NCBI GenBank assembly: GCA_049971805.1
Contig: JBMFKU010000030.1
Span: 1 to 13,006 of the forward strand
From: Caldisphaera sp.
Lineage (GTDB): Archaea > Thermoproteota > Thermoprotei_A > Sulfolobales > Acidilobaceae
Direction of reading: 5' to 3'
Length of the DNA: 13,006 nt
The notes beneath the pieces are model-generated. The model made no database searches. It saw nothing but the letters and a program-made list of their open reading frames with translations, and was not told where the DNA came from. Shown one piece after another: positions 1 to 13,005 of the stretch (its first letter is position 1; the number at the start of each line of letters is the position of its first letter). Both the position numbers and the translations under genes were made by a program.

Positions 1-77
1 TAAAAAATGAATGCAGTGAATCACAAAACTAGAACAGCTCTAAGAGAACCCTCACTCTTTAGTGTGGGAAGGGTCAG
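1..77 (+). mobile_element. Decayed 3' end (right end / omegaRNA-type region) of an IS200/IS605 tnpB element, truncated by the window edge
   Basis: GAACCCTCACTCTTTAGTGTGGGAAGGGTCAG (46-77) has a subterminal hairpin CCCTCACT-CTTT-AGTGTGGG (49-68, one mismatch) and ends in TCAG. It resembles the crenarchaeal IS605 right-end pattern as I recall it (GAACCCTCGCCCTTTAGGGCGGGGAGGAGGTCAG). The upstream ATGAATGCAGTGAATCACAAAAC also resembles recalled tnpB 3' ends. Not verified by search. Confidence 0.75.
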
Positions 78-114
78 GAACCACTAAAATCACTATATAA
101 AGAAATTCATTAAA

Positions 115-210
115 TGAAAAGAAAAAACTAAGAAGAAAAAGCACAAAGCAAGACTATTTATAGCTATCTTGTTATTTTAATTTATATTTATAATATTCTT
201 CGTGCTTTTT
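115..210 (-). terminator. Probable 3' end/terminator region of the 209..1447 gene: inverted repeat followed by U-tracts
   Basis: AAAAAGCACAAAG (136-148) and CTTCGTGCTTTTT (198-210) form a 12/13 inverted repeat with an inner CAAGA/TCTTG pair (149-153/167-171). On the minus-strand transcript several U4-U6 runs follow (115-140). Confidence 0.4.
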
Positions 211-1447
211 AGATTTGAGGCTTAATAATTGCAAAATCTTTGTTACATGAAGGATAAAAGATTGCATTTTCTTTTAATAGTTCTGCAACCTTATAAGATT
301 CCTTATCATATAAAAATACCTTTGCAATACTTAATGCTAAAGAAGGGTCTTCAATACAACATGCAAAAAACCCCGATGATTTTGCATTATATTTTTGCAT
401 AATTTCATTGCCTAAAATTAAATCGCTTTCTATAATAATGTTATTGCTTTTTGAAAGATCCCTTATCAAATTCCTAAATTCTTTATTTTCTACAACATCT
501 TTATCCGCACGTATAATAAAAATTCTATCTTTAAAATCTTTTAAAAGACTTAAAACGTGTATAGAGTAAATTCTATCTTTATCACTTAAGTCAATACCTA
601 TGCATTTCTCAAAGCTATTAATCTGAGTTATATCCATTAAATTATTGCAATAAGGCCTTTTAGAGATACCAATTTCTATATAATTATTTATTTTAATTAG
701 ATTATCTTTTAAATTATATGCCCATAATAAATAAGGTTCATCAAGCATTATCTTGCTTTTTTCTGATCTAACACAGACAACCTTTTTATTTCCATTAATA
801 TTAATACCTGAATATATAATTTTACCATTCAATTCCAGGCCATCGCAATCGCATAAATAAAATGGCTTGTTGTATAAAAAAACAGATAATAAATAAAGAC
901 CTATAGGGCCTGTTGAAGATGCCAACCCCAATAATATGGATCCCTTAATGCCTTCATCTAAAGTTGAAGATATTAATGCATTTACAAAGCTAACAATAAA
1001 TAAAGTTAACAAAAAATAATAGGTAAAAAAGTTATTCAAAAAATTTATTAATAATAATATAATTAAAACAAAGGAAACAAATGCTGGGGGTATTGGATTA
1101 ATAGGCCTGTCTATATTTAAAGATCCCTCACCCCTTTTTAAAGCAAAGCGTGCGACCAAAGAAGAAACGATACCCATAAAAGAAGAAAGCAATAATATGC
1201 CCCAAAAATATTTAATAAACAAAATTGGTATCAAAGATATTGAAATGCCTAGCAAATAATTACCTATAAATGTGGCGAGCAATGAAAAAATTATTATTAT
1301 AAATGGTAATAAAACCAAATAAAGCAATGAGCCTAAATTAAAGTTGTAAAGAATATAAGAACTTCTATTAGAATAAAAAATAACAATCAAATATGAAATT
1401 AAAACAACTATTTCTGCTATTTGTTTGTTTAAATTTTTGCATTCCAT
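209..1447 (-). CDS. Membrane protein, about 6-7 N-terminal TM segments plus a ~215-aa soluble alpha/beta domain (possibly degenerate HerA/VirB4-like, no Walker A)
   Basis: 412-aa ORF with GGTG upstream of the ATG. Residues ~10-192 are strongly hydrophobic. The C-terminal pattern (IFIIRAD...FRNLIRDLSK...IIIES...ILGN...IEDP) loosely follows the post-Walker B part of HerA/VirB4 ATPases. The CDS is well supported; the family call is weak. Confidence 0.8.
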   Translation of the reverse strand: MECKNLNKQIAEIVVLISYLIVIFYSNRSSYILYNFNLGSLLYLVLLPFIIIIFSLLATFIGNYLLGISISLIPILFIKYFWGILLLSSFMGIVSSLVARFALKRGEGSLNIDRPINPIPPAFVSFVLIILLLINFLNNFFTYYFLLTLFIVSFVNALISSTLDEGIKGSILLGLASSTGPIGLYLLSVFLYNKPFYLCDCDGLELNGKIIYSGININGNKKVVCVRSEKSKIMLDEPYLLWAYNLKDNLIKINNYIEIGISKRPYCNNLMDITQINSFEKCIGIDLSDKDRIYSIHVLSLLKDFKDRIFIIRADKDVVENKEFRNLIRDLSKSNNIIIESDLILGNEIMQKYNAKSSGFFACCIEDPSLALSIAKVFLYDKESYKVAELLKENAIFYPSCNKDFAIIKPQI

Positions 1448-1505
1448 CCTAATTTAAACACCATTATTTTAATAAAAATAAAGCTATTTATTTTTTAGAG
1501 CCTTA

Positions 1506-1527
1506 AGGTTTAAAGCTTTTAAAACCT
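1506..1527. promoter_or_regulatory. Back-to-back BRE/TATA promoter for the divergent 209..1447 gene and the pilus operon
   Basis: AGGTTTAAAGCTTTTAAAACCT has dyad symmetry (AGGTTT...AAACCT). Plus strand reads AAAG-C-TTTTAAAA (TATA 1517-1524); minus strand reads AAAAG-C-TTTAAA (TATA 1514-1509). Confidence 0.55.
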
Positions 1528-1569
1528 GCATTTTTATTATATTAGTTGGGAAACTGTGGGGTAGCCTTT

Positions 1570-3138
1570 ATGAATGAAAAAGCAAACCTAAAGATATTGG
1601 AAGAATATGGTGTTATAGGCTACCCCAAGGTATTTATTAGGATTTCTGAAGATGAAGACAAAAGAAGGCTTTATGATGTAATAGAACCAATACTAGATGA
1701 GGTATCTCAATTTGTTTATAAGGAAATTATGAACTATGTAGCAAAGGATCTAGATTTATCAAGAAAATTGAGCTTAAAGAAAAGTGTAGAAGAAGGTATA
1801 GAAGTGCTTTTGCCATTAGCCAAAAGCCTGGCATCCAAAAAAATTAAAATAGGCTTTCATTTAAGAAAAGATGGTAGACTAAAGGATTTAGAAAAGAAAA
1901 TTAATGATTGTGCATTAACCTCATCATATTATGCCTCAAGGGATCTTATAGGATATGGTAAAATAGAGCCATTGATGAGGGATCCATATATAGAGGATAT
2001 ATCATGTAACGGCCTGCATATATCCCTATTTGTATACCATACAAAGTATGAATGGCTTACAACGAATGTCGTTTTTAATAGCGAAGATGAATTAAATTCA
2101 ATAATTTCAAAGCTTGGAGTTAAAAGCTCTAGAGAGCCCTCCATTGCAAATCCAATAATAGAAGGCGTTTTAAAACCTGAAGGGTATAGAGTAAACATAG
2201 TTTTAGATACAGTATCAAGACATGGTCATAGCTTTACAATAAGAAAGTTCAGAGCCGAGCCTTTTACAATAATAGAATTGATGAAAACAAAAACTCTAGA
2301 CCCATTAGTTGCATCATTTATTTGGTTAGCTGTTGAAAGCAAGCAAGGAATTATATTTTACGGCCCAACAGGTAGCGGTAAGACAACATTGCTAAATGCA
2401 TCAACAATGCTTATGCCAACAGAATACAAGATAGTTACAGTTGAAGATACCCCTGAAATATATTTACCATTCCATGAAAACTGGGGAGCAATGATGACCA
2501 GGTCTTCTACAGATCCAAGAGTAGAAAACATTACTTTACAATCGCAAATAGAGGCGGCATTAAGACAAAGGCCGGATGTCATAATAGTAGGAGAAATAAG
2601 ATCAAGAGAAGCATTTGCATTCTTCCAGGCACTGGCAACTGGTCATGGAGGTCTAACAACAGTTCATGCAGAGTCTGCAGATGTCTTAATAAAGAGGCTC
2701 GTCTCTCCTCCAATGAATGTGCCAGCTAGCCTTATATCTGCAGCAAGACTGTTTGTAAACATCTTAAGAGTTGAAGAAGGGGGAAATACATTTAGAAAAG
2801 TGATGAGAATCGATGAATCTTGGGGTTATGATTTCAATACAAACAATGTTATATTAAAGGAAAAGATTTTATGGGATAGACAAAAGGATTATTGGTACAT
2901 TAAAGGAAAAGAGAGCTATCTATTAAAAACAGTTGCACAATTAAATTTGATTAGCTATGATGAGGTAATTAATGACTTAAAAAGGAGAGCAACAGTACTT
3001 AACTGGTTAATTAAAAAGGTTTCTAATAGTACAATGCTTAATGAAGTTCTCAGGCTATACAAGAGGGATCCAATCGATATATATAAACAAGCTGTTTCAG
3101 AATCGGGAGAATACAATATAGAAATAAGAGGGGATTAA
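1570..3138 (+). CDS. Type IV pilus / type II-IV secretion assembly ATPase (VirB11/TadA/FlaI family)
   Basis: Walker A GPTGSGKT, Asp box TVEDTPE, Walker B DVIIVGEIR, His box TGHGGLTTVHA and the archaeal GYGKIEPLMRDPYIEDISCNG motif. Start moved from TTG 1546 to ATG 1570, which has a GGGGT SD-like site upstream. Confidence 0.95.
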   Translation: MNEKANLKILEEYGVIGYPKVFIRISEDEDKRRLYDVIEPILDEVSQFVYKEIMNYVAKDLDLSRKLSLKKSVEEGIEVLLPLAKSLASKKIKIGFHLRKDGRLKDLEKKINDCALTSSYYASRDLIGYGKIEPLMRDPYIEDISCNGLHISLFVYHTKYEWLTTNVVFNSEDELNSIISKLGVKSSREPSIANPIIEGVLKPEGYRVNIVLDTVSRHGHSFTIRKFRAEPFTIIELMKTKTLDPLVASFIWLAVESKQGIIFYGPTGSGKTTLLNASTMLMPTEYKIVTVEDTPEIYLPFHENWGAMMTRSSTDPRVENITLQSQIEAALRQRPDVIIVGEIRSREAFAFFQALATGHGGLTTVHAESADVLIKRLVSPPMNVPASLISAARLFVNILRVEEGGNTFRKVMRIDESWGYDFNTNNVILKEKILWDRQKDYWYIKGKESYLLKTVAQLNLISYDEVINDLKRRATVLNWLIKKVSNSTMLNEVLRLYKRDPIDIYKQAVSESGEYNIEIRGD

Positions 3139-3217
3139 AACGTTTAAAAGATCAAAAAAGGTAAAAAAGAATAAAATACATAAAAATTTTTTAAAAAATT
3201 TAAATTACTATATAAGC

Positions 3218-4075
3218 TTGTTTTATAATAACATTAGGCCATGTAATTTAATATATAAGATAAACCACGACATAAGCTATTTAGTTATAGGCTCTGGGAT
3301 CAGCAAGAATCTTTCAGATTATTGCAAAAAAGCTGTATTAATATACCTTTTCCTGCCAACATTATTATGGGAAGTAGCTTACATATACATGGGCTTAAAT
3401 CCTAAATATGATTTAGAAAAAATAATAGTTTTCTCGATATTAACAGCAATTATTGGCTATATCATATCAATTTTTATAAGCGTTTTAATACCATCGTTTA
3501 AGTATTCATCTAGAAAAGACTTGTTGGAGGCAAAATTCCATGTATTTGCATCTTCCTTAACTTCAATACTTGCAGGGGGTGAAGGGTTAGCAATTGCTTT
3601 GCAAATCTTTTCTACAAAATATGAAAATGAGTTGAAGGAATTTAATGTTGAACTAAACTATATAAAGGCATTAAGCAATTTAAATGTTGATCCAGTAACA
3701 ATACTCGAAGATCTATCAAAAATTACCCCTTCCCCTAGCTTAAAGCTTTTTTGCCAATCATTAGCCAGAGGAGAAAGGGCTGGTGCAGATTTAGTCCAAA
3801 TAGCCCAAGACTCTATAAACTCCTATTTGAATTTCTACTATTCTTTAGTTGAAAAGGTATCTGCATCGATTGGTACATTATTGGAATCATTTCTTGTTGT
3901 GGGTATAGTTGCACCTGTTTTAGTTGGAGTAATGGGAATGCTGTTTACTGTAATGCCCGTTAGCAGTTTAAGCTTTAGCTCACTAATTATATTGGTTATT
4001 TTTATATTAATACCGATAGTTTCAATAATAACAGCAGTTCTGGCTGATAACCAATCAAGCAAGCTAAAGCTATAG
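3218..4075 (+). CDS. Type IV pilus membrane platform protein (TadC/FlaJ/T2SS-F family), copy 1; true start may be upstream (ACG 3140)
   Basis: Two N-terminal TMs, a T2SSF-like cytoplasmic domain (LTSILAGGEGL...LSKITPSPSLKLFCQSL...GADL) and two C-terminal TMs; lies directly downstream of the ATPase. Confidence 0.88.
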   Translation: MFYNNIRPCNLIYKINHDISYLVIGSGISKNLSDYCKKAVLIYLFLPTLLWEVAYIYMGLNPKYDLEKIIVFSILTAIIGYIISIFISVLIPSFKYSSRKDLLEAKFHVFASSLTSILAGGEGLAIALQIFSTKYENELKEFNVELNYIKALSNLNVDPVTILEDLSKITPSPSLKLFCQSLARGERAGADLVQIAQDSINSYLNFYYSLVEKVSASIGTLLESFLVVGIVAPVLVGVMGMLFTVMPVSSLSFSSLIILVIFILIPIVSIITAVLADNQSSKLKL

Positions 4076-4083
4076 GTGGGAAA

Positions 4084-4992
4084 ATGACAAAAAGGGTTGG
4101 ACCTCCAAGGCCTACAAGATACATATCTTTTACACCAATTTCAGGCCTCATATCATTGCTTCTATTTTATTTTTTATTTATAAAGCTTTTTCCAACACAG
4201 TTTCCAAAGTTTATCATATTTTCGGGCATACCTGTACCTGCAAGTAACATAACTATTATATTTATTGATCTGTTTTTAATTTTCCTCCTTCTTCCTCTCG
4301 CATTTTACTCAAAAAAATATACTGTATTTATGCAAAAACTAAAAGAACAGACAAGGGGGTTTTTGCAAGTATACCCAAGCGTTGCAACTTCATTGCCCTC
4401 TGTTTCACAGGCAATAATTGCATCTATAGACCTAGTTGAAGAACCTTTAAAGGACTATTTAGCTGCATTTGGCTATCTTTATAAGATGACTGGCGATTTA
4501 GAAGGTTCTTTCTTAAAGATATTTTCAAATGCCCCTAGAGATGTTAGGTTATTGCTTATATCTATATTGACAACAGCCAAAAGTGGTGGGAGGTCTAGCG
4601 ATGTATTAAACGTTACAAGTAAATACGCATCAGAGCTACAAAGGATGGAGTCTTACCTAAAAAACAAGTTGCAATCATACTCAACAGTAATAATGATGGG
4701 TATAGCAGTTTATGGTTTTTCAGTTGGTATGACAACTGTTATGCTGGAAATACTAAGAAAGAGCCCTTCTCTTGGTTTAACAGGGATTTCTACATATGCA
4801 ATAAATGTTGAAGGTGTTATAGGGATTTTCTTTTATTCCCTTTTAATAGTATCTGCTGCATCTGCATATGTAATTGCAAAGATAATTTCAGACTATGCTC
4901 CAAGAACTAGCGAATATTTTATTTATTTAATATCAATTGGTACAATAAGCATGATGATAGCATTTTCCATGGCCCGGGGTTTAATACACTAA
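4084..4992 (+). CDS. Type IV pilus membrane platform protein (TadC/TadB/FlaJ family), copy 2
   Basis: GGTGG SD site before the ATG. TM-TM, T2SSF-like domain (TTAKSGGRSSDVL...LKNKLQSY), then three TMs; operonic with the ATPase and pilins. Confidence 0.88.
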   Translation: MTKRVGPPRPTRYISFTPISGLISLLLFYFLFIKLFPTQFPKFIIFSGIPVPASNITIIFIDLFLIFLLLPLAFYSKKYTVFMQKLKEQTRGFLQVYPSVATSLPSVSQAIIASIDLVEEPLKDYLAAFGYLYKMTGDLEGSFLKIFSNAPRDVRLLLISILTTAKSGGRSSDVLNVTSKYASELQRMESYLKNKLQSYSTVIMMGIAVYGFSVGMTTVMLEILRKSPSLGLTGISTYAINVEGVIGIFFYSLLIVSAASAYVIAKIISDYAPRTSEYFIYLISIGTISMMIAFSMARGLIH

Positions 4993-5004
4993 GGTGGAAA
5001 ATTA

Positions 5005-5037
5005 ATAAGGTCTTAAAAACCATATATATAAGGGGAT
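5005..5037 (+). promoter_or_regulatory. Possible internal promoter (BRE/TATA) and SD site for the pilin genes
   Basis: TAAGGT-CTTAAAAA (TATA-like 5012-5019) lies about 22-29 nt upstream of TTG 5041; AGGGGA at 5031-5036. Confidence 0.4.
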
Positions 5038-5040
5038 AAA

Positions 5041-5481
5041 TTGAAAAATAAAAGAGCTATTAGTGATATTGTTGCAGAAATAATGATGATTTTAGTAACG
5101 TTAGCGATAGGATTTGTTTTAATAGCCTATCTATCTTCATCCGCAGGGTCATTTGTTAGCCTTGTAAATTCCAATAGCAACAAGGAGCAATTAAACCTCC
5201 AGCAATATATTGTTCCGATGGGATCTTATGTAAATAAAAGCAATTTATATATAATTTTTAATACAGGCCCTATGGGTGAAGAGGTTTACAATGTTTACAT
5301 TAATAGCACATTAATCAATACATGCCAGGTTTCTTATAAAAACAACTGGTATTCATTACCTGCTAATTTGCCATCTAATGCGGTTGCTGTGATAAAGTGT
5401 TCCAACATAAAAAACTCACCACTACTGGTAACAATATCTTATAGTGGGGGGGAAGTAGAAATTGAGGCAAATCCATCATAA
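5041..5481 (+). CDS. Archaeal type IV pilin (class III signal peptide), 146 aa
   Basis: MKNKRA/ISDIVAEIMMILVTLAIGFVLIAY: basic leader, PibD/FlaK-type cleavage site and hydrophobic helix, followed by a small beta-rich domain with two Cys. TTG start with AGGGGA SD. Confidence 0.9.
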   Translation: MKNKRAISDIVAEIMMILVTLAIGFVLIAYLSSSAGSFVSLVNSNSNKEQLNLQQYIVPMGSYVNKSNLYIIFNTGPMGEEVYNVYINSTLINTCQVSYKNNWYSLPANLPSNAVAVIKCSNIKNSPLLVTISYSGGEVEIEANPS

Positions 5482-6451
5482 AAGATCTCAATCAGCAATA
5501 GTTGGTGCAGTAATTTTTGTCATAGCAGTTTTTATCGTGGCTGGAGTATTAATTTCTCTAATAAACTATAATGAAAACCTGTATTCAACCCAAAAAAATT
5601 CCATACAGATACAACAAATGGTTAGCTTGATAGAAAAAGATATATTTTCTTATTATTACTACAATGGAAGCTATATCTTTATTAATGTTACAAACAATGT
5701 TTATCCCTATGGCTATTATATTTCTGGCATTTCAGTTATTTTAAGCAATGGAAGCTATATAACTTATGATCAATACTCTGGGGCTAGCAACTCATTAAAT
5801 ATAACAGTTAAAGGAGTTAATGGAGGGGTTGCAACATATAACTTTTTGCCTGTTCCAATGAACCCTAACTACTCTGCCCTAATTATTATAAAGAATATTA
5901 AATCAAACCCTATAGGAATTTCTATAAGCGTCGCTAATGGAAAGGCCATAGCTTCAATACCTGTTGAGAATTTACAGCAAATTCTTTCAGCATTAAGAGG
6001 AACTGGTGTTATATATGTTGTTCCACCGGTAAGCAAAATAATAACTAATAAATATTTTGTTGTTAACTTTACTATTGTGGATATAAACCCTTACGATATA
6101 ACATATAGCCAAACCCATGATGAAAATAATAAAGGGTATTATTCATGGAATGTTTCGTTTTATTACACAACAAAATATATTAATGGTACTTTATACTATC
6201 AAAATTCATTATTTAAAGAACAATCTAGTGGTAGCAATCTGTATTTATCCAACGGTTATAATATAACATACACAAACGTACCTTCAGGTTACTACTATTA
6301 TTACAATATATCCGATCTATACTTATATTCTTCTAGTAATAAACAAACGGAAATAATATGTTATCCAAATCCAGCTTCTGGTATAATTCTAGTTAACCAA
6401 AATATCTTTATAAATATTACTTATAATTGTCCTGGAGCAAAAAAAGATTAA
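5462..6451 (+). CDS. Large minor pilin / putative adhesin with class III signal peptide, 329 aa
   Basis: MRQIHHKRS/QSAIVGAVIFVIAVFIVAGVLISL; Tyr/Asn/Ser-rich beta domains; about 11 N-x-S/T sequons counted by eye; C-terminal Cys pair; overlaps pilin 1 by 20 nt. Confidence 0.85.
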   Translation: MRQIHHKRSQSAIVGAVIFVIAVFIVAGVLISLINYNENLYSTQKNSIQIQQMVSLIEKDIFSYYYYNGSYIFINVTNNVYPYGYYISGISVILSNGSYITYDQYSGASNSLNITVKGVNGGVATYNFLPVPMNPNYSALIIIKNIKSNPIGISISVANGKAIASIPVENLQQILSALRGTGVIYVVPPVSKIITNKYFVVNFTIVDINPYDITYSQTHDENNKGYYSWNVSFYYTTKYINGTLYYQNSLFKEQSSGSNLYLSNGYNITYTNVPSGYYYYYNISDLYLYSSSNKQTEIICYPNPASGIILVNQNIFINITYNCPGAKKD

Positions 6452-6485
6452 ATTGATAAAAATATAAACAAATCTTACCTTTTAA

Positions 6486-6746
6486 TTGGGAGTATGGTTT
6501 AAGGTTTGTTTTCAAAATAAATTAGATAATGCTAGCCATCAAATAGAGTATGTTTCACAATATGAGGTAAGCATCTACTTATTGTCAAATCCAAGGGTAA
6601 GAAGGTTTAAGATGTCTTCCTCAGGTCAAATAAGGATAAGGAGTTGGATTAACTTTACTCCCACATAGGGAGGAATCAGAGTAGCTCCTTTAAGGAATAA
6701 CTCTTAAGATCTCAGAAACCCTCGCCCATCACGACGAGGAGGACAG
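6486..6746 (+). mobile_element. Internally deleted, decayed IS200/IS605 tnpB remnant (5' part joined to 3'/right end)
   Basis: Right-end-like GAAACCCTCGCCCATCACGACGAGGAGGACAG (6715-6746) resembles 46-77. The translation LLSNPRVRRFKMSSSGQ...FTPT resembles the N-terminus, and RVAPLRNNS*DLRNPRP the C-terminus, of Sulfolobales-type TnpB as recalled. In-frame stops are present and no RuvC motifs remain. Left boundary is approximate. Confidence 0.65.
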
Positions 6747-6834
6747 ATTAGACAATAATACTGATTTTATTTTTAAATTATTTATACAAATTGAATTAAA
6801 ATTAAATAATTACCTTAATAAACCATTAGTAATT

Positions 6835-7260
6835 TTATTGTTCTTTAGCTCCCTTCTCAATAAGTTTTTTCCTCAATTCTTGGGGTATTTCCATTGATTT
6901 GTTATTTATTTCATCATATACCACGGTAACTATTTTGCATACTGCTGATAACTCATTGCTACTCTCATTGTATATCTCATAAGTATACCTTATGCTGCTC
7001 TTACCCAATTGGATTTCTTTTATGTTAACGCTATATAGATCCCCAGGCCTCAAGGAGTTTTTATAATCACACTCTGCATGTACTCTAGGCATTATCAATC
7101 TTTTTCCAACTTCACCTTTTTGAGAAATGTTTAAAGATGCGTAAAAGTCCTCTTCAGCCCTTTCACATACTCTAAAGAAATTTGAGAAGTGCATCATTAA
7201 TGCAGCATCTGTTTCACTCCAATAGACTCTATATTTAGCTGAGAAAATAGGCCTTTCCAT
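6835..7260 (-). CDS. Acyl-CoA thioesterase, hotdog fold (4HBT/YbgC family)
   Basis: RVYWSETDAALMMHFSNFF (family D-x-x-G-x-V-x-x-x-x-Y-like motif), MPRVHAECDYKNSLRPGD and LGKSSIRY. Start placed at ATG 7260, which has a GGGGA SD, rather than at 7284. Confidence 0.9.
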   Translation of the reverse strand: MERPIFSAKYRVYWSETDAALMMHFSNFFRVCERAEEDFYASLNISQKGEVGKRLIMPRVHAECDYKNSLRPGDLYSVNIKEIQLGKSSIRYTYEIYNESSNELSAVCKIVTVVYDEINNKSMEIPQELRKKLIEKGAKEQ

Positions 7261-7856: not shown

Positions 7857-9344
7857 ATGTTTATTATAAAAGAATTTGAGCTTGAGGGAAGGCTAGGAGT
7901 TATAAAAACTAAGAGAGGAAAAGTGGAAACCCCTGCATTCTTTCCAGTTATAGATCCGTTAAAACAATTGGTCTCCATAAAGGAAATTGAGGAAATAGGA
8001 TTTGACCAAATAATAACAAATGCATATTTATCCTATAAAAGATTTGGTGAAAAATTAATAAGTGAAGGAATCCATAATGTTTTAAACTTTGATAAGGTAA
8101 TAATGACAGATTCGGGCGCATATCAAATACTTGAATATGGTAATATAGATGCTTCCCAAGAAACAGTAATGAATTTTGAAAAAGCCATAGGCAGTGATAT
8201 TGCAGTTATATTGGACAAGCCAACAGGTGATGTAAATAAATTAGATGCCGAAAAAAGTGTTGAAGAAACTCTAAAAAATGCCTATGAGGCTGTAAAGTTA
8301 AAAGATGATAAAACTTTATGGGTTTTACCAATACAAGGAGGTAGATACCTGGATTTAATAAAAAGAAGCTCTGAAGAGTCTGCAAAATTACCATTTGATA
8401 TATTTGCAATAGGTAGCCCAACAGTTTTTTTAGAAAAATACAGCTATAAAACAATAATTGATATGATAGCAACTGCTAAAAATTGTCTCCCCCCTGAAAA
8501 GCCTGTTCATCTATTTGGCGCAGGCCATCCATTAATATTTCCATTTGCAGCATCTTTAGGTATTGATGCATTTGATTCTGCATCGTATGCATTGTATGCA
8601 AGAGATAACAGGTATATGACCGACTATGGTACAGAGAGGCTTGAGGATCTAGATTACTTTACATGCAATTGCCCAGTTTGTTCTAAATATACACCAAAGG
8701 AGCTTATGGAGATGGATAAGAAAGAAAGGGAAAGACTTCTTTCAATGCACAATTTATATGTAATAAAAAGGTCTATAAACAGGACAAAACAAGCAATTAA
8801 AGAAGGAAGACTATGGGAATTTCTTGTTGAAATTTCCAGGTACAGGCCAGAGGCCTATGAGGCCTTAAGATCATTAAGCAAATATATAAAACAAATAAAC
8901 AAATATAATCCAAGATATAAAGGAAACCCAAGGGGTCTAAGGTTTTACAACGAAGAAAACCTTTGGAATCCAAGGATAATAAACTACAAGACCTGGATAC
9001 TAACAAAATATTTGCCAGATGAAAAGAAAGTAATATTAAGGCAGATACCTAAAGACACAAGATATTGTATGGGGGAAGATGGAAGGGAGGTTATTTATTA
9101 TACTCCATACATAGGCTTGATACCATATGAAATCTGCGGAGTTTATCCAACGATCCAATTCCATTATTATGATCCCATACCAATACAGGTTGAGAGGGAT
9201 TTAATAAACATGGTTAGAGTTTTTATTATTAAAATGAAGAAATTAGGCTATGATATAATTGTTGAGGCCTCATATAACAACTATTATAGCCATGATATAG
9301 GTAAAGAGGCAGAAAGACTTAAAGTTAAGGTTAATTGGAAATAA
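7857..9344 (+). CDS. tgtA: Archaeosine tRNA-guanine(15) transglycosylase (arcTGT), lacking C2/PUA domains
   Basis: ETPAFFPV, IMTDSGAYQ, PIQGG, VHLFGAGHP, FDSASY, Zn site CNCPVC...HN, C1-domain PYEICGVYP; 495 aa. Confidence 0.96.
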   Translation: MFIIKEFELEGRLGVIKTKRGKVETPAFFPVIDPLKQLVSIKEIEEIGFDQIITNAYLSYKRFGEKLISEGIHNVLNFDKVIMTDSGAYQILEYGNIDASQETVMNFEKAIGSDIAVILDKPTGDVNKLDAEKSVEETLKNAYEAVKLKDDKTLWVLPIQGGRYLDLIKRSSEESAKLPFDIFAIGSPTVFLEKYSYKTIIDMIATAKNCLPPEKPVHLFGAGHPLIFPFAASLGIDAFDSASYALYARDNRYMTDYGTERLEDLDYFTCNCPVCSKYTPKELMEMDKKERERLLSMHNLYVIKRSINRTKQAIKEGRLWEFLVEISRYRPEAYEALRSLSKYIKQINKYNPRYKGNPRGLRFYNEENLWNPRIINYKTWILTKYLPDEKKVILRQIPKDTRYCMGEDGREVIYYTPYIGLIPYEICGVYPTIQFHYYDPIPIQVERDLINMVRVFIIKMKKLGYDIIVEASYNNYYSHDIGKEAERLKVKVNWK

Positions 9345-9361
9345 AGAAAACTACATATAAA

Positions 9362-10093
9362 TTACATATAAATGTTTGAAGAACCTTCTTTAGGTATTTC
9401 TGATTGCAACATCTTGACAATTTTATCTATTTCTTCCCTCTGCTTAACTGCCAGCTGCTCTAATTCAGGAAGTGCGGCTTCCATTTTCAGCAGGCTCTTT
9501 AATATAGCCTTAACACCAACAAATGTAGCATCATAATCAACCCCCTCTATTATTGAATATGGCAATACCATAACCGTTGGTATCTTAATTTTCTCCAAAT
9601 AAATATAAAGCAATGCTAAAGGTCCAACAACCCCAAGCCCTTTCTCCATTCTAGGGGCATCTAATTCGGGGCCTTTGTATGAATTGTTTGAAAGCCATCT
9701 GTAACCAAACTTCTCATTTTCACTCATAAATTCCCTGCTTAGCCCTCCAACCAATACCGCATATTTAAATCCCATCTCTTTTATCCATAATGATATTTTA
9801 TTGCTATAGGAGTTTTGGTCAATTATTTCTGGCACTGCCCTATTAATTAAAGCAGAAGCCCCTTTGTTTTGATATATCTCGAAAGGAAGACCAATTCCAT
9901 CATCTTCTACCAATATAACTGATGGCATTCTGCTAGTCATTATATAACCTACCTTTTTCATAGACAAAGCTAACGAAAGGTATTTGGGAACCATATAACC
10001 TACTCTTCCAAAACCTGGAAAACCTGTTACAAGTATGTTATCTTTAAATACTTCTTTATCTACATCTATTACTATATCAACTTTTCTATCCAT
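9362..10093 (-). CDS. PAC2-family proteasome assembly chaperone homolog with C-terminal HbYX motif
   Basis: LVTGFPGFGRVG, LVGGL, GVVGPLALL; C-terminus ...NIYM. Confidence 0.9.
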   Translation of the reverse strand: MDRKVDIVIDVDKEVFKDNILVTGFPGFGRVGYMVPKYLSLALSMKKVGYIMTSRMPSVILVEDDGIGLPFEIYQNKGASALINRAVPEIIDQNSYSNKISLWIKEMGFKYAVLVGGLSREFMSENEKFGYRWLSNNSYKGPELDAPRMEKGLGVVGPLALLYIYLEKIKIPTVMVLPYSIIEGVDYDATFVGVKAILKSLLKMEAALPELEQLAVKQREEIDKIVKMLQSEIPKEGSSNIYM

Positions 10094-10556
10094 TTCCTTG
10101 CACCTTCTCCCTTAGTCTTACAGCTTCCCCTTTGCCCAAAGACGCCATCATAAACCCAGGCGCCCTAGCCTTTCCTACACCTATAATCTGCCCCTTATAG
10201 TCTATTATGACGACTTCATCTCCTGGTCTTATCAGAGGATCTGATGATATAACATCTATACCCATCACATCCCCCCTATAATCTACATCGTTTCTTGCTA
10301 TTACCCTATACCTTGGAGGATCGGAATTTTCTAATATTATCTTTCCTGCCTCTAAACTTATTGTAAATCCATAGTCTGTTGGTCTCATAGTCATAATCCT
10401 TTTTTCTTCTAAATAAACATACCTAAGCTTACCTAGTCTTAATGATATCTTTATAGGCAATTTTATAAATGCATTTGCAACCTTTTCATCAAATTGATAT
10501 GATAATAAATTCCTTATCATCTTTAATTGATCTTCATTTGGATCTAGCAATTTCAT
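10086..10556 (-). CDS. Stand-alone TGT C2 + PUA domain RNA-binding protein
   Basis: LSYQFD (TGT C2-like YQFG motif), MRPTDYGFTISLEAG, and PUA signature DPLIRPGDEVVIID...IIGVGKA...GEAVRLR. Confidence 0.88.
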   Translation of the reverse strand: MKLLDPNEDQLKMIRNLLSYQFDEKVANAFIKLPIKISLRLGKLRYVYLEEKRIMTMRPTDYGFTISLEAGKIILENSDPPRYRVIARNDVDYRGDVMGIDVISSDPLIRPGDEVVIIDYKGQIIGVGKARAPGFMMASLGKGEAVRLREKVQGNG

Positions 10557-11273: not shown

Positions 11274-12218
11274 ATGTCTATTAGAGACTTAAAAGGAAAG
11301 GATATGCTATGTTTAGCAGATTACACACCAGAGCAAGTGCAATTCCTAATAAACTTGGGCTTGGAATTAAAGATCAGGTATTATACTGGGGAAAGAATCT
11401 TAAATACTTTATCTGGAAAAAGCATAGCAATGATATTTGAAAAGCCTTCAACAAGGACCAGGGTAAGCCTAGAAGTAGCTGCTTATCAGCTAGGGGCGCA
11501 ACCAATAACCCTAGGATGGAATGAGCTACAGCTAGGAAGAGGAGAACCAATTAAAGATACAGCTAGAGTATTGTCTAGGTTTGTAAATGGTATAACTGCA
11601 AGGGTTAAAAATCATGGGGATTTAATAGAGCTAGCCAATTACGCAAGTGTACCTGTAATAAATGCATTGAGCGATTTATCTCACCCTATGCAGGTAATAG
11701 CTGATTACATGACTATCTACGAGAAGAAAAATAGGCTAAAAGGAATTAAGCTAGCATTTATAGGGGATGGAAGCGATAATATGGTTAATAGCTTGATGGT
11801 AGTAGCTTCCCAATTGGGTGTTGATTTCTATCTTGGCTCTCCAAGTAGCTTAAAACCAAATGAAAATGTATTTAAAAAGGCTTTGGAATTTTCTCAAATA
11901 AGCGGTTCTAAAATAATTTTTACTGAAGATCCTTATGAAGCAGTAGATAGTGCAGACGTTGTTTATACAGACGTATTTGTGAGCATGGGACAAGAGGATA
12001 TCGCAGAACAAAAAAAGAAGATACTAAAGCCTTATCAAGTTAATATAAAATTAATAGAAAAAGCAAAAAATAAGGCAATATTTTTACATTGTTTACCAGC
12101 ACACAGAGGGGAAGAAGTTACGGATGAAGTAATAGAAGGTCCTTGGTCTGCTGTATGGGATGAAGCCGAAAACAGGTTACACAGTGAAAAAGCTGTTTTA
12201 TCTGCTCTTATACCATAA
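11274..12218 (+). CDS. argF: Ornithine carbamoyltransferase
   Basis: FEKPSTRT, HPMQ, DVVYTDVFVSMG, FLHCLPAHRG, AENRLH. Start placed at ATG 11274 (GGTGA SD); leaderless ATG 11250 is an alternative. Confidence 0.97.
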   Translation: MSIRDLKGKDMLCLADYTPEQVQFLINLGLELKIRYYTGERILNTLSGKSIAMIFEKPSTRTRVSLEVAAYQLGAQPITLGWNELQLGRGEPIKDTARVLSRFVNGITARVKNHGDLIELANYASVPVINALSDLSHPMQVIADYMTIYEKKNRLKGIKLAFIGDGSDNMVNSLMVVASQLGVDFYLGSPSSLKPNENVFKKALEFSQISGSKIIFTEDPYEAVDSADVVYTDVFVSMGQEDIAEQKKKILKPYQVNIKLIEKAKNKAIFLHCLPAHRGEEVTDEVIEGPWSAVWDEAENRLHSEKAVLSALIP

Positions 12219-13005
12219 GACATTTTTCTAAAGAATTTATATCAATCTCTATAGGATCCATTGGAATAGACCTTAGATGATTTCTTATTGATTTTAATAT
12301 TAATTTATTTTGATTAATATCTAAATAAAAAACATTATCATAGACATTTATTAAAGGTATCTCCATTAAATCTTTTTCATAACTATTAATAAAATAAAAA
12401 CCTGTTACATTATTAACTGCCCTTCTAACTAAATTATTATAGTGCTCTTCTTTATATGTTTCTTTATCTGCAACAAAGTCAATATAATTTCCCAGGCCTT
12501 CAATTATTATAATATCAGGTTTTTCTATTTTTTCGATTGCCTCAGCTATTAACTCTAAATCAATTATAGATCGAGAAGTCGGATTTAAATTTCTAATAAA
12601 TAAATTGTTTAATCCCTCTTTATATAAATCAAGGTGATTTTTTATGCACCTCGTTAATGCATCAATTATAGTCCTTTCTCCATGCATGTAACTTCTATAG
12701 TGTATCCTTAACTTATTTTTCATAATTGAAGGTAGTAATATTGATGTTATGAAAGATAAAGTATCTATGCTTGGATTTGCCAAAAAAACATTTTGGGTAC
12801 CTGAAACCAAGGAAATTTTATTCTGGCCAATTATAATATCTATATAGCCTTTTTCAGGCATAATGCCAGAAGGTATAGACTTTAAATCTGGAGGCATTCT
12901 AAATGAAATAATATCTGGAACCCCTATAGTAAACGGTATTTCACCAATGTTTATTTCATTCCCCCTCATCTTCCTTATTTCCATTAACCTAACAAGCTTC
13001 CTCTT
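12208..13005 (-). CDS. KaiC/RAD55-like RecA-superfamily ATPase, 3' part only (5' end outside the window); second domain degenerate
   Basis: The frame is open to the window edge (KRKLVRL-MEIRKMRG...IPFTI, the typical end of a KaiC domain). A second domain follows with an eroded Walker A region (ISLVSGTQNVFL) and Walker B-like PDIIIIEGL. Overlaps argF convergently by 11 nt. Confidence 0.78.
   Translation of the reverse strand, partial: KRKLVRLMEIRKMRGNEINIGEIPFTIGVPDIISFRMPPDLKSIPSGIMPEKGYIDIIIGQNKISLVSGTQNVFLANPSIDTLSFITSILLPSIMKNKLRIHYRSYMHGERTIIDALTRCIKNHLDLYKEGLNNLFIRNLNPTSRSIIDLELIAEAIEKIEKPDIIIIEGLGNYIDFVADKETYKEEHYNNLVRRAVNNVTGFYFINSYEKDLMEIPLINVYDNVFYLDINQNKLILKSIRNHLRSIPMDPIEIDINSLEKCLMV

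Follow-up and report, generated by a model that had tools for sequence, protein, structure and literature searches.

The question raised by this locus is whether a type IV pilus operon and the membrane protein gene lying divergently beside it form a six-gene surface system of their own, or whether a pilus operon of a familiar kind has come to lie next to an unrelated gene. The locus is contained in a 13,006-nucleotide (nt) stretch of archaeal DNA (hereafter the window) that stems from Caldisphaera: the pilus ATPase encoded in it is 100% identical to a protein named by NCBI from a metagenome-assembled genome (MAG) of Caldisphaera sp. The window is AT-rich, with a GC content of 0.26-0.36 along its length and a mean of 0.32. 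An earlier interpretation based on the letters alone (the sequence-only reading) had proposed a distinct adhesion or cell-contact system, in which the membrane protein, carrying a possible dead HerA/VirB4 domain, would be the dedicated partner of the pilus machine. Our results favour another answer. Positions 1570-6451 probably represent a type IV pilus operon of subclade (or subsystem) 4A that was passed on by vertical descent, and the gene for the 412-amino acid (aa) membrane protein would be a chance neighbour, placed there by rearrangement.

All six open reading frames (ORFs) were found exactly where the sequence-only reading had placed them. They were compared with ten related loci (L001-L010) that emerged from an ATPase-based scan of 185,579 species genomes and whose hosts are Caldisphaera, 'Hestiella', Acidilobus, an uncultured Desulfurococcales archaeon and a Thermoprotei MAG. 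The features of the locus, with the evidence for each, are as follows:

209..1447, minus strand: 412-aa orphan membrane protein (X412) (ORF call)
1448..1569, no strand: divergent intergenic region (alignment with L001, L002 and L005)
1570..3138, plus strand, ORF open from TTG 1546 (530 aa): pilus assembly ATPase of the FlaI/PilB/GspE family, arCOG01817-type (Pfam T2SSE, Walker A)
3218..4075, plus strand: platform half 1, TadC/T2SSF with one domain, 285 aa, arCOG01812-type by position and synteny (sub-threshold T2SSF match, synteny)
4084..4992, plus strand: platform half 2, TadC/T2SSF with one domain, 302 aa, arCOG01808-type by position and synteny (sub-threshold T2SSF match, synteny)
5041..5481, plus strand: class III signal-peptide pilin, 146 aa, likely the major pilin, arCOG11238-type (conserved N-terminus, sub-threshold Pilin_N and UpsA matches)
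5462..6451, plus strand: second class III-like protein, 329 aa, likely a minor pilin or adhesin (conserved N-terminus)

Because of their tight spacing, the five co-directional genes are compatible with a single transcription unit: the two TadC genes are 8 nt apart, 48 nt precede the pilin gene, and the two pilin genes overlap by 20 nt. That this unit encodes a type IV pilus was borne out by its content of a T2SSE-family ATPase, two TadC-type genes and a class III pilin. The ATPase scored 116.9 bits against Pfam T2SSE (E 1.1e-33, cut-off 24.9), and both its Walker A motif (GPTGSGKT) and the sequence VIIVGEIR are intact, as is characteristic of secretion ATPases (T2SSE family with Walker A and B). 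Against NCBIfam FlaI it reached 355 bits with end-to-end coverage of the model, under the equivalog cut-off of 550, and against NCBIfam BasE 180 bits, far under the cut-off of 1000. In light of this FlaI score, and since no archaellin (FlaB) or FlaF, FlaG or FlaH match was obtained in a Pfam scan of the window proteins (our library scans covered 14 of them), we agree with the sequence-only reading that the locus is not an archaellum. The nearest relatives of the ATPase in the PDB were Archaeoglobus afGspE (2oap, 261 bits), Sulfolobus acidocaldarius FlaI (4ii7, 226 bits) and CpaF (122 bits), and the protein is 62% identical to that of Acidilobus saccharovorans (P0007, 514 aa). Its translation probably starts at ATG 1570, which gives 522 aa; this start is favoured over TTG 1546 because it is aligned with the start codons of three orthologous loci and agrees with the length of the identical protein (P0002).

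As the sequence-only reading had held, there are two separate TadC-type genes, which by position and TM layout probably encode the platform, with one T2SSF domain each. Against Pfam T2SSF, half 1 scored 20.6 bits and half 2 scored 20.1 bits (both E ~5e-4), under the cut-off of 25.2, a value that their positional counterparts in L010, the most distant locus, exceed with 39.5 and 32.4 bits. Half 1 carries transmembrane (TM) segments at both protein ends. BLASTP found no mutual similarity between the two halves, and their profiles align weakly over the T2SSF regions (E 0.015). We note that the frame of half 1 is open upstream nearly to the ATPase stop codon (window 3125-3218) and that this extension resembles the N-termini of the orthologues, which begin overlapping the ATPase gene. 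The extension contains no ATG, GTG or TTG, the first listed start being TTG 3218; the true start of half 1 is uncertain and possibly involves a rare start codon.

The 146-aa protein begins with MKNKRA/ISDIVAEIMMIL (the slash marks the predicted cleavage), the cleavage-site region being KRA/ISDIVAEIMMILVTLAIGFVLIAYL. A charged leader, a small residue at position -1 and a hydrophobic helix mark it as a pilin with a predicted class III signal peptide, and this signal peptide was kept in 10/10 sequences. The predicted site (RA/IS) is close to those listed in a review table for UpsA (KAIS) and for AapA and AapB (RALS), although family scores for the whole protein remained sub-threshold (Pilin_N, 17.5 bits; UpsA, 29.9 bits against a cut-off of 130). 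From these features the protein is likely the major pilin. The 329-aa protein starts with KRSQSAIVGAVIF (KRSQSAIVG), followed by a hydrophobic helix, and this N-terminus was present in 8/10 compared sequences, including two from the Acidilobus group. The protein matched no family in Pfam, NCBIfam, PADLOC or PHROGs. Beyond the N-terminus, its 11 N-x-S/T sequons and its low share of charged residues (9.3%) are what exported proteins of this window show; Tyr makes up 11.9%. The orthologues measure 300-346 aa in Caldisphaeraceae and 638-709 aa in the Acidilobus group. A conserved N-terminus combined with a variable outer domain is what is expected of an adhesin-like minor pilin, so the 329-aa protein is likely a minor pilin or adhesin. 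Of the two class III pilins that had been proposed, the first is thus upheld by its signal peptide, while the second has a conserved, class III-like N-terminus but lacks a family match. No class III signal peptidase (PibD/FlaK type, A24) was matched among the scanned window proteins with Pfam. In L008 (13819-15735), the large pilin-like ORF downstream of the pilin gene holds a masked run (X), and its N-terminus was left out of the comparison.

These components, in this order, correspond to rows of a published census. In a supplementary table of Makarova et al. (2016), A. saccharovorans is listed with arCOG01817 FlaI (514 aa), arCOG01812 TadC, arCOG01808 TadC, an arCOG11238 'subclade_4A' pilin and a 658-aa protein without arCOG. 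The rows for Caldisphaera lagunensis in the same table comprise LSM1, the FadM thioesterase, a protein without arCOG, a 146-aa arCOG11238 subclade_4A pilin and two TadC genes. Akin to these loci (ASAC_0299-0302 and Calag_1251-1253), the window shows the same gene content and order and a layout equal to the published rows; its pilin is of the same length as that listed for C. lagunensis, and the operon is likewise flanked, on its downstream side, by thioesterase (FadM) and LSM1 genes. We noted no essential difference, except that only here, unlike in the published tables of those two genomes, the 412-aa orphan stands directly upstream. Subclade 4A corresponds to subsystem 4A in the classification of Sivabalasarma and Albers (2026). 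Judged by gene content and order, the operon is therefore a member of a class already catalogued in two genome censuses, and the proposal of a distinct uncharacterised system did not hold up against the rows listed there. In the C. lagunensis table (NC_019791, 1251580..1253447), the two TadC genes are followed by the thiolase gene, leaving a 1.87-kb unlisted gap at the position of the ATPase; that record may lack an annotation for the C. lagunensis ATPase gene, or the gene may be a pseudogene there.

Other pilus systems resemble the window less closely. The Aap pilus of Sulfolobus acidocaldarius (AapE/AapF/AapA/AapB/AapX), described as 'formerly part of subsystem 4A' (Sivabalasarma and Albers, 2026), shares with the operon the ATPase clade of the 2016 scheme, short class III pilins with an RA/xS-type site and a likely adhesive function, but according to its description it is set apart by one full-length platform protein, AapF, in place of two half-size genes. 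No aapX-like gene was seen at this locus. The Ups pilus (UpsX/E/F/A/B; subsystem 4I, described as exclusive to Sulfolobales) is likewise a type IV pilus with two class III proteins, and Ced components are reported in the same order. As opposed to the window with its two TadC genes, Ups has a single UpsF, and scores of 29.9 bits for UpsA and 19.2 bits for UpsB (cut-off 70) confirm that this is not a ups locus. The comparison drawn in the sequence-only reading, that the Sulfolobus Ups and Aap systems each have a single platform protein (UpsF and AapF, respectively), agrees with the published descriptions. Finally, the bacterial Tad system (CpaF, TadB, TadC) and the Methanococcus Epd system (EpdL, EpdJ, EpdK) are described, like the window, with one ATPase and two separately encoded PilC/TadC paralogues, but these belong to other clades with other accessory genes, and TadZ, a secretin and a Flp-type pilin are not in the window.

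We also considered that the operon serves something other than plain adhesion, either as an aggregation pilus for Ced DNA exchange in an order without Ups, or as a bindosome-like machine displaying class III substrate-binding proteins. Such a role seems decidedly improbable to us. It would accord with reports that some crenarchaea encode Ced but not Ups, with the description of Ups genes as Sulfolobales-only and of cedD and other ced genes as extending to Acidilobales, and with the proposal in the 2026 census of widespread functionalised machines among type IV filaments. However, the UpsA and UpsB scores of the pilin fall far short of the cut-offs, the BasE score of the ATPase does too (180 against 1000), no ABC transporter or binding-protein gene was found among the window proteins in the Pfam scan, and nothing at the locus indicates regulation by DNA damage.

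The distribution of the operon argues for descent within these lineages. The ATPase and TadC half 1 were present in all ten loci, the latter always directly after the ATPase. With phmmer, half 2 was recovered in nine, and L010 was added by its Pfam T2SSF match (32.4 bits); the short pilin was present in 9/10. An ATPase tree (n=126) built from search-found relatives of the window ATPase followed taxonomy, with Caldisphaeraceae, the Acidilobus group, Pyrodictiaceae, Desulfurococcaceae/Ignisphaera and Sulfolobales MAGs as its groups; this agreement with taxonomy suggests that the pilus system was inherited vertically.

The operon also appears to have a promoter of its own. A TTTAAA-N3-TTTAAA element occupies positions 1509-1523 and is palindromic in the orthologues (GCTTTAAATATTTTAAAGC), and a second element, GGGGTAGCC, lies at 1558-1566, immediately upstream of ATG 1570. 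Both are invariant in the alignment of the window with L001, L002 and L005, though the DNA further upstream differs, which suggests that they belong to the operon and not to its neighbour. We infer that they constitute its own promoter and leader, the first probably being a TATA or regulator site.

The position of the 412-aa gene is far less constant. It is divergent from the operon across a short gap (98 bp to the ORF start at 1546, 122 bp to the start at 1570), and its product was modelled twice with about seven helices, so the divergent multi-TM gene of the sequence-only reading is real. Eight of the ten related loci were informative, the sequence upstream of the ATPase extending over 3.9 kb or more in each; L002 and L005 contain too little upstream DNA to place the gene. 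In none of the eight was a family member adjacent and divergent to the operon, and the proposed six-gene unit is thus not conserved. In L001 (Caldisphaera, ATPase 80% identical), a full-length homologue shares the operon's strand and lies 8,741 bp upstream of it; the genes in between encode a molybdopterin oxidoreductase, a CedD-like HerA-type ATPase, a P-loop kinase-like ORF, an AIR-synthase-related protein, two MetE proteins, a thiolase and a pirin; the same thiolase-MetE-MetE run stands beside the operon in the published C. lagunensis table. In L007-L009 (Acidilobus group), a form comprising the TM part only lies ~2 kb upstream on the same strand, with class II aminoacyl-tRNA synthetase and DUF2122 genes intervening. 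No family member was found upstream of the operon in L006, L010 or A. saccharovorans, and the upstream genes of L006, like those in the published A. saccharovorans table, are of the winged helix-turn-helix/Cdt1 type.

In the two 'Hestiella' loci, the divergent upstream slot is occupied by the gene for a pilin-like protein of 486-488 aa with a class III signal peptide (KRRGISNIVAV...; L003:2330-3790 and L004:2420-3886, both on the minus strand), which matched no Pfam family. A second, related pilin-like ORF in each locus is interrupted by the contig start (L003:1-345, L004:1-441). By their predicted products, these upstream genes look like extra pilin or adhesin genes.

Looser proximity was more frequent: in 4/8 loci the 10 kb upstream of the operon contain a family member (full length in L001, TM-only in L007-L009), a share above random placement. 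On the linkage of 412-aa orthologues to pilus loci elsewhere, by which the sequence-only reading had proposed to judge its case, the result is therefore divided, adjacency being absent throughout but proximity being retained in those four. They represent about two independent lineages, with housekeeping genes between the two elements. As a control, unrelated thioesterase, Lsm and archaeosine-TGT (tRNA-guanine transglycosylase) genes were found within 10 kb downstream in 4/4 loci with enough downstream DNA. The region thus keeps its gene set while being shuffled, so that proximity alone carries little weight for function. In L001 the homologue is followed by the oxidoreductase gene, of which window positions 1-208 contain no trace; the rearrangement separating the two loci was accordingly not a single clean inversion. 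Taken together, these arrangements are best explained by a local rearrangement within a syntenic region, rather than by a functional unit, as the reason for the 412-aa gene's position here.

Under the proposal of the sequence-only reading, the 412-aa protein would serve the pilus machine as its dedicated pseudo-ATPase partner, anchored in the membrane, and the six genes would form one cell-contact system. We take such a partner to be a scaffold or regulator that docks on the ATPase or the platform (loosely as FlaH/ArlH for FlaI or TadZ for the Tad system). The divergent arrangement over 98-122 bp and the four upstream family members speak for it, as do a C-terminal domain of cytoplasmic composition with a beta-alpha-beta pattern and the fact that its best, albeit weak, fold matches are P-loop ATPases. 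We nonetheless regard it as unlikely, given the lack of adjacency in all informative loci, the intervening housekeeping genes, and the promoter-like element that is conserved where no 412-aa gene stands beside the operon. The Acidilobus loci keep the TM part only, which implies that the supposed pseudo-ATPase domain is dispensable in that group. The family is moreover confined to Acidilobales, whereas the operon reaches Pyrodictiaceae, Desulfurococcaceae and Sulfolobales MAGs, and in its account of type IV filament loci the 2026 census reports no further conserved gene beyond known arCOGs.

What, then, is the 412-aa protein? An exhaustive HMMER search of 1.84 billion representative sequences returned four representatives, namely its own fragment, a Caldisphaera cluster (41% identity) and two proteins at 25-30%, one of which (P0124) is named by NCBI from Acidilobaceae MAGs; word-indexed searches with the protein and with its family alignment gave only the protein itself and P0125. 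All named members are from Caldisphaera or Acidilobaceae; at HMMER sensitivity, the family does not extend beyond Acidilobales. Pfam, NCBIfam and PHROGs contain no match to the protein, and PADLOC gave only a negligible match to SIR2 (13.6 bits, E 0.0078). The protein consists of about seven TM helices (residues ~1-192) followed by a charged alpha/beta C-terminal domain (193-412). In the membrane part, P118, S161, G174 and GPxG (180-183) are invariant in the family, and the full-length members have in common the C-terminal motifs C201, C225, EPxxLW, (I/V)DL(S/G), SSG and YP(S/G)C. Searching the related loci with the family hidden Markov model (HMM) yielded five matches among 477 ORFs. Those in L007:7038-7949, L008:7301-7927 and L009:5816-6643 (all plus strand) correspond to proteins of ~200 aa that match the membrane domain only (HMM 14-192, E ~1e-12) and keep its P, S, G and GPxG; the family thus exists with and without the C-terminal domain. 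With 27.7% charged residues and no sequons, this domain resembles the cytoplasmic proteins of the window (24-28.5% charged) and not the exported pilin domains (9-10%), and is therefore probably cytoplasmic.

Its relationship to ATPases proved elusive. No GK[ST] of a Walker A motif is present in the window protein, in the L001 homologue or in P0122, P0124 and P0125, although a true 'dead' member would fail this test by definition. Two AlphaFold models, both poor, agreed on about seven membrane helices followed by a beta-alpha-beta domain, with mean predicted local distance difference test (pLDDT) scores of 49.9 and 50.0 and the best stretch, residues 280-345, at 71-83. With the alignment-based model (pLDDT 50, predicted TM-score 0.39), the best PDB matches found by Foldseek were EccC (E 4.7e-3, TM-score 0.27) and TcpA, with a HerA assembly at rank 34 and many AAA+ proteins; no PDB match reached E <= 1e-3, and TM-scores did not exceed 0.28. 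With the single-sequence model, EccC, TcpA and HerA were not reproduced, the matches being to unrelated proteins (RFC, glutamate receptors) at E >= 0.045. A profile search of the PDB with the family gave, as its best match, de novo designed alpha/beta proteins of generic beta-alpha-beta architecture (E 0.12), and no VirB6. Nothing was found when the family was compared by hhalign with the ATPase alignment, both TadC alignments and a 258-aa orphan at the right edge of the window. Structural neighbours from the ESM Atlas (glycosyltransferases, DUF218) were set aside, as all had TM-scores below 0.5 and the Atlas model a pLDDT of 0.40; neither the whole protein nor its C-terminal part gave a usable feature match there. 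The dead HerA/VirB4 domain of the sequence-only reading was therefore not confirmed: there is no match in Pfam, NCBIfam or PDB sequences, no Walker A, and the weak fold matches failed to recur. Like CedB, CedD, EccC and TcpA, members of the membrane-anchored FtsK/HerA superfamily, the protein combines a membrane anchor at the N-terminus with a probably cytoplasmic alpha/beta domain, but it lacks Walker A and any Pfam DUF87 or AAA_10 match, both of which the CedD-like protein of L001 gave in a scan of that kind, and it has about seven TM helices as against the single TM domain listed for CedD.

The L001 locus raised a further possibility. Its gene at 2397-4007 (plus strand) codes for a HerA/FtsK-type ATPase of 536 aa, anchored in the membrane, with matches to NCBIfam CedD (242 bits, E 1e-71) and to both Pfam DUF87 and AAA_10 and with the Walker A sequence GSTGTGKS. 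CedD is a recently described ATPase reported to be essential for Ced DNA import. Since the gene lies only 1.2 kb from the 412-aa homologue, the 412-aa protein might belong to the Ced apparatus, combining a channel-like membrane domain (in a role like that of CedA or VirB6) with a degenerate FtsK/HerA-type domain and acting with CedD and CedB. The reported co-occurrence of CedB and CedD in Acidilobales, the 6-7 TM helices described for CedA, which are comparable to the ~7 seen here, and the identity of the top fold matches (EccC, TcpA, HerA) would fit. We give this idea very little credence, however: the CedD neighbourhood was seen in one locus only, with a convergent molybdopterin oxidoreductase gene between, and the CedD score is under the curated cut-off of 600. 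An hhalign comparison of the family with the L001 CedD-like protein returned a probability of 0.14%, four family members and one TM-only form gave no NCBIfam match, and the fold matches (E >= 4.7e-3, TM-score <= 0.28) came from a pLDDT-50 model and were unreproduced with the second one. Still less credible to us is an extended version, in which the family would be a catalytically dead, Acidilobales-only offshoot of the FtsK/HerA (CedB/CedD-like) ATPases that links Ced import to a 4A pilus replacing Ups-mediated cell contact; the gene beside the operon here and the one beside the CedD-like gene in the sister genome would then be two traces of one DNA-exchange module. Were the CedD linkage to hold in more genomes, it could indicate that, in lineages lacking Ups pili, a component of crenarchaeal DNA exchange is still missing from the picture.

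Several observations weigh against our preferred interpretation, a catalogued 4A operon with a chance neighbour. The arCOG labels of the window proteins derive from orthology and synteny with the published tables, and the Pfam and NCBIfam scores of both TadC genes and of the 146-aa pilin are sub-threshold. The presence of family members upstream in half of the eight informative loci, from which linkage was judged, exceeds chance. The best fold matches of the 412-aa protein are membrane-anchored FtsK/HerA-type ATPases, which leaves the pseudo-ATPase reading a small probability. Finally, while the ATPase falls in a catalogued clade with the same gene content, an outcome that the sequence-only reading had named as telling against a distinct system, this clade has no bench characterisation; in the literature searched we found neither a bench study of a 4A pilus in Acidilobales or Desulfurococcales nor an experiment on the function of any in the former order.

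By analogy with known systems, a hexameric FlaI/PilB-type ATPase would drive assembly of the 4A pilus on a membrane platform made from the two half-size TadC/T2SSF proteins, which together would take the place that a single FlaJ/TadC fills with its two T2SSF domains, as is the case for TadB/TadC and EpdJ/EpdK. A class III signal peptidase with its gene elsewhere would cleave the 146-aa pilin behind KRA, the pilin would polymerise via its hydrophobic N-terminal helix, and the sequon-rich 329-aa class III protein could act as minor pilin or adhesin, its variable outer domain setting the binding target of the pilus. Adhesion to surfaces or cells is the most likely role of such an operon. The 412-aa gene product, in turn, would span the membrane several times and bear a Walker-less alpha/beta domain in the cytoplasm; its family is restricted to Acidilobales.

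The operon is thus one more Caldisphaera example of a pilus class listed in two genome censuses. Being compact, with five genes that include one for a clear major pilin and one for a second, adhesin-like pilin of variable sequence, it is a good candidate for filament purification and cryo-electron microscopy. The 412-aa family, for its part, is a true orphan, with four representatives among 1.84 billion and without family, structure or annotation.

A few features of the flanking DNA deserve mention. A 383-bp spacer (window 6452-6834) separates the 329-aa and thioesterase genes, which nearly abut in L001 and L002. It holds a 60-aa ORF (6486..6668), and positions 6560-6760 are richer in GC than the window as a whole (0.40 vs 0.32). 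The spacer gave no Rfam match and no similarity to the related loci. When positions 1-260 and 6440-6840 were checked for structured RNA, neither tRNA genes nor matches above the Rfam gathering cut-off turned up; a PreQ1 match was sub-threshold (18.7 bits vs 39), and the fold z-scores were -0.36 and -0.54. The 258-aa ORF at the right edge (12208-12984, minus strand) had no Pfam, NCBIfam, PADLOC or PHROGs match and is unlike the 412-aa family. Downstream of the operon, the parts of TGT are encoded as two genes on opposite strands, the catalytic part (495 aa) at 7857-9344 on the plus strand and a TGT_C2+PUA protein (156 aa) at 10086-10556 on the minus strand, with a PAC2 gene between them.

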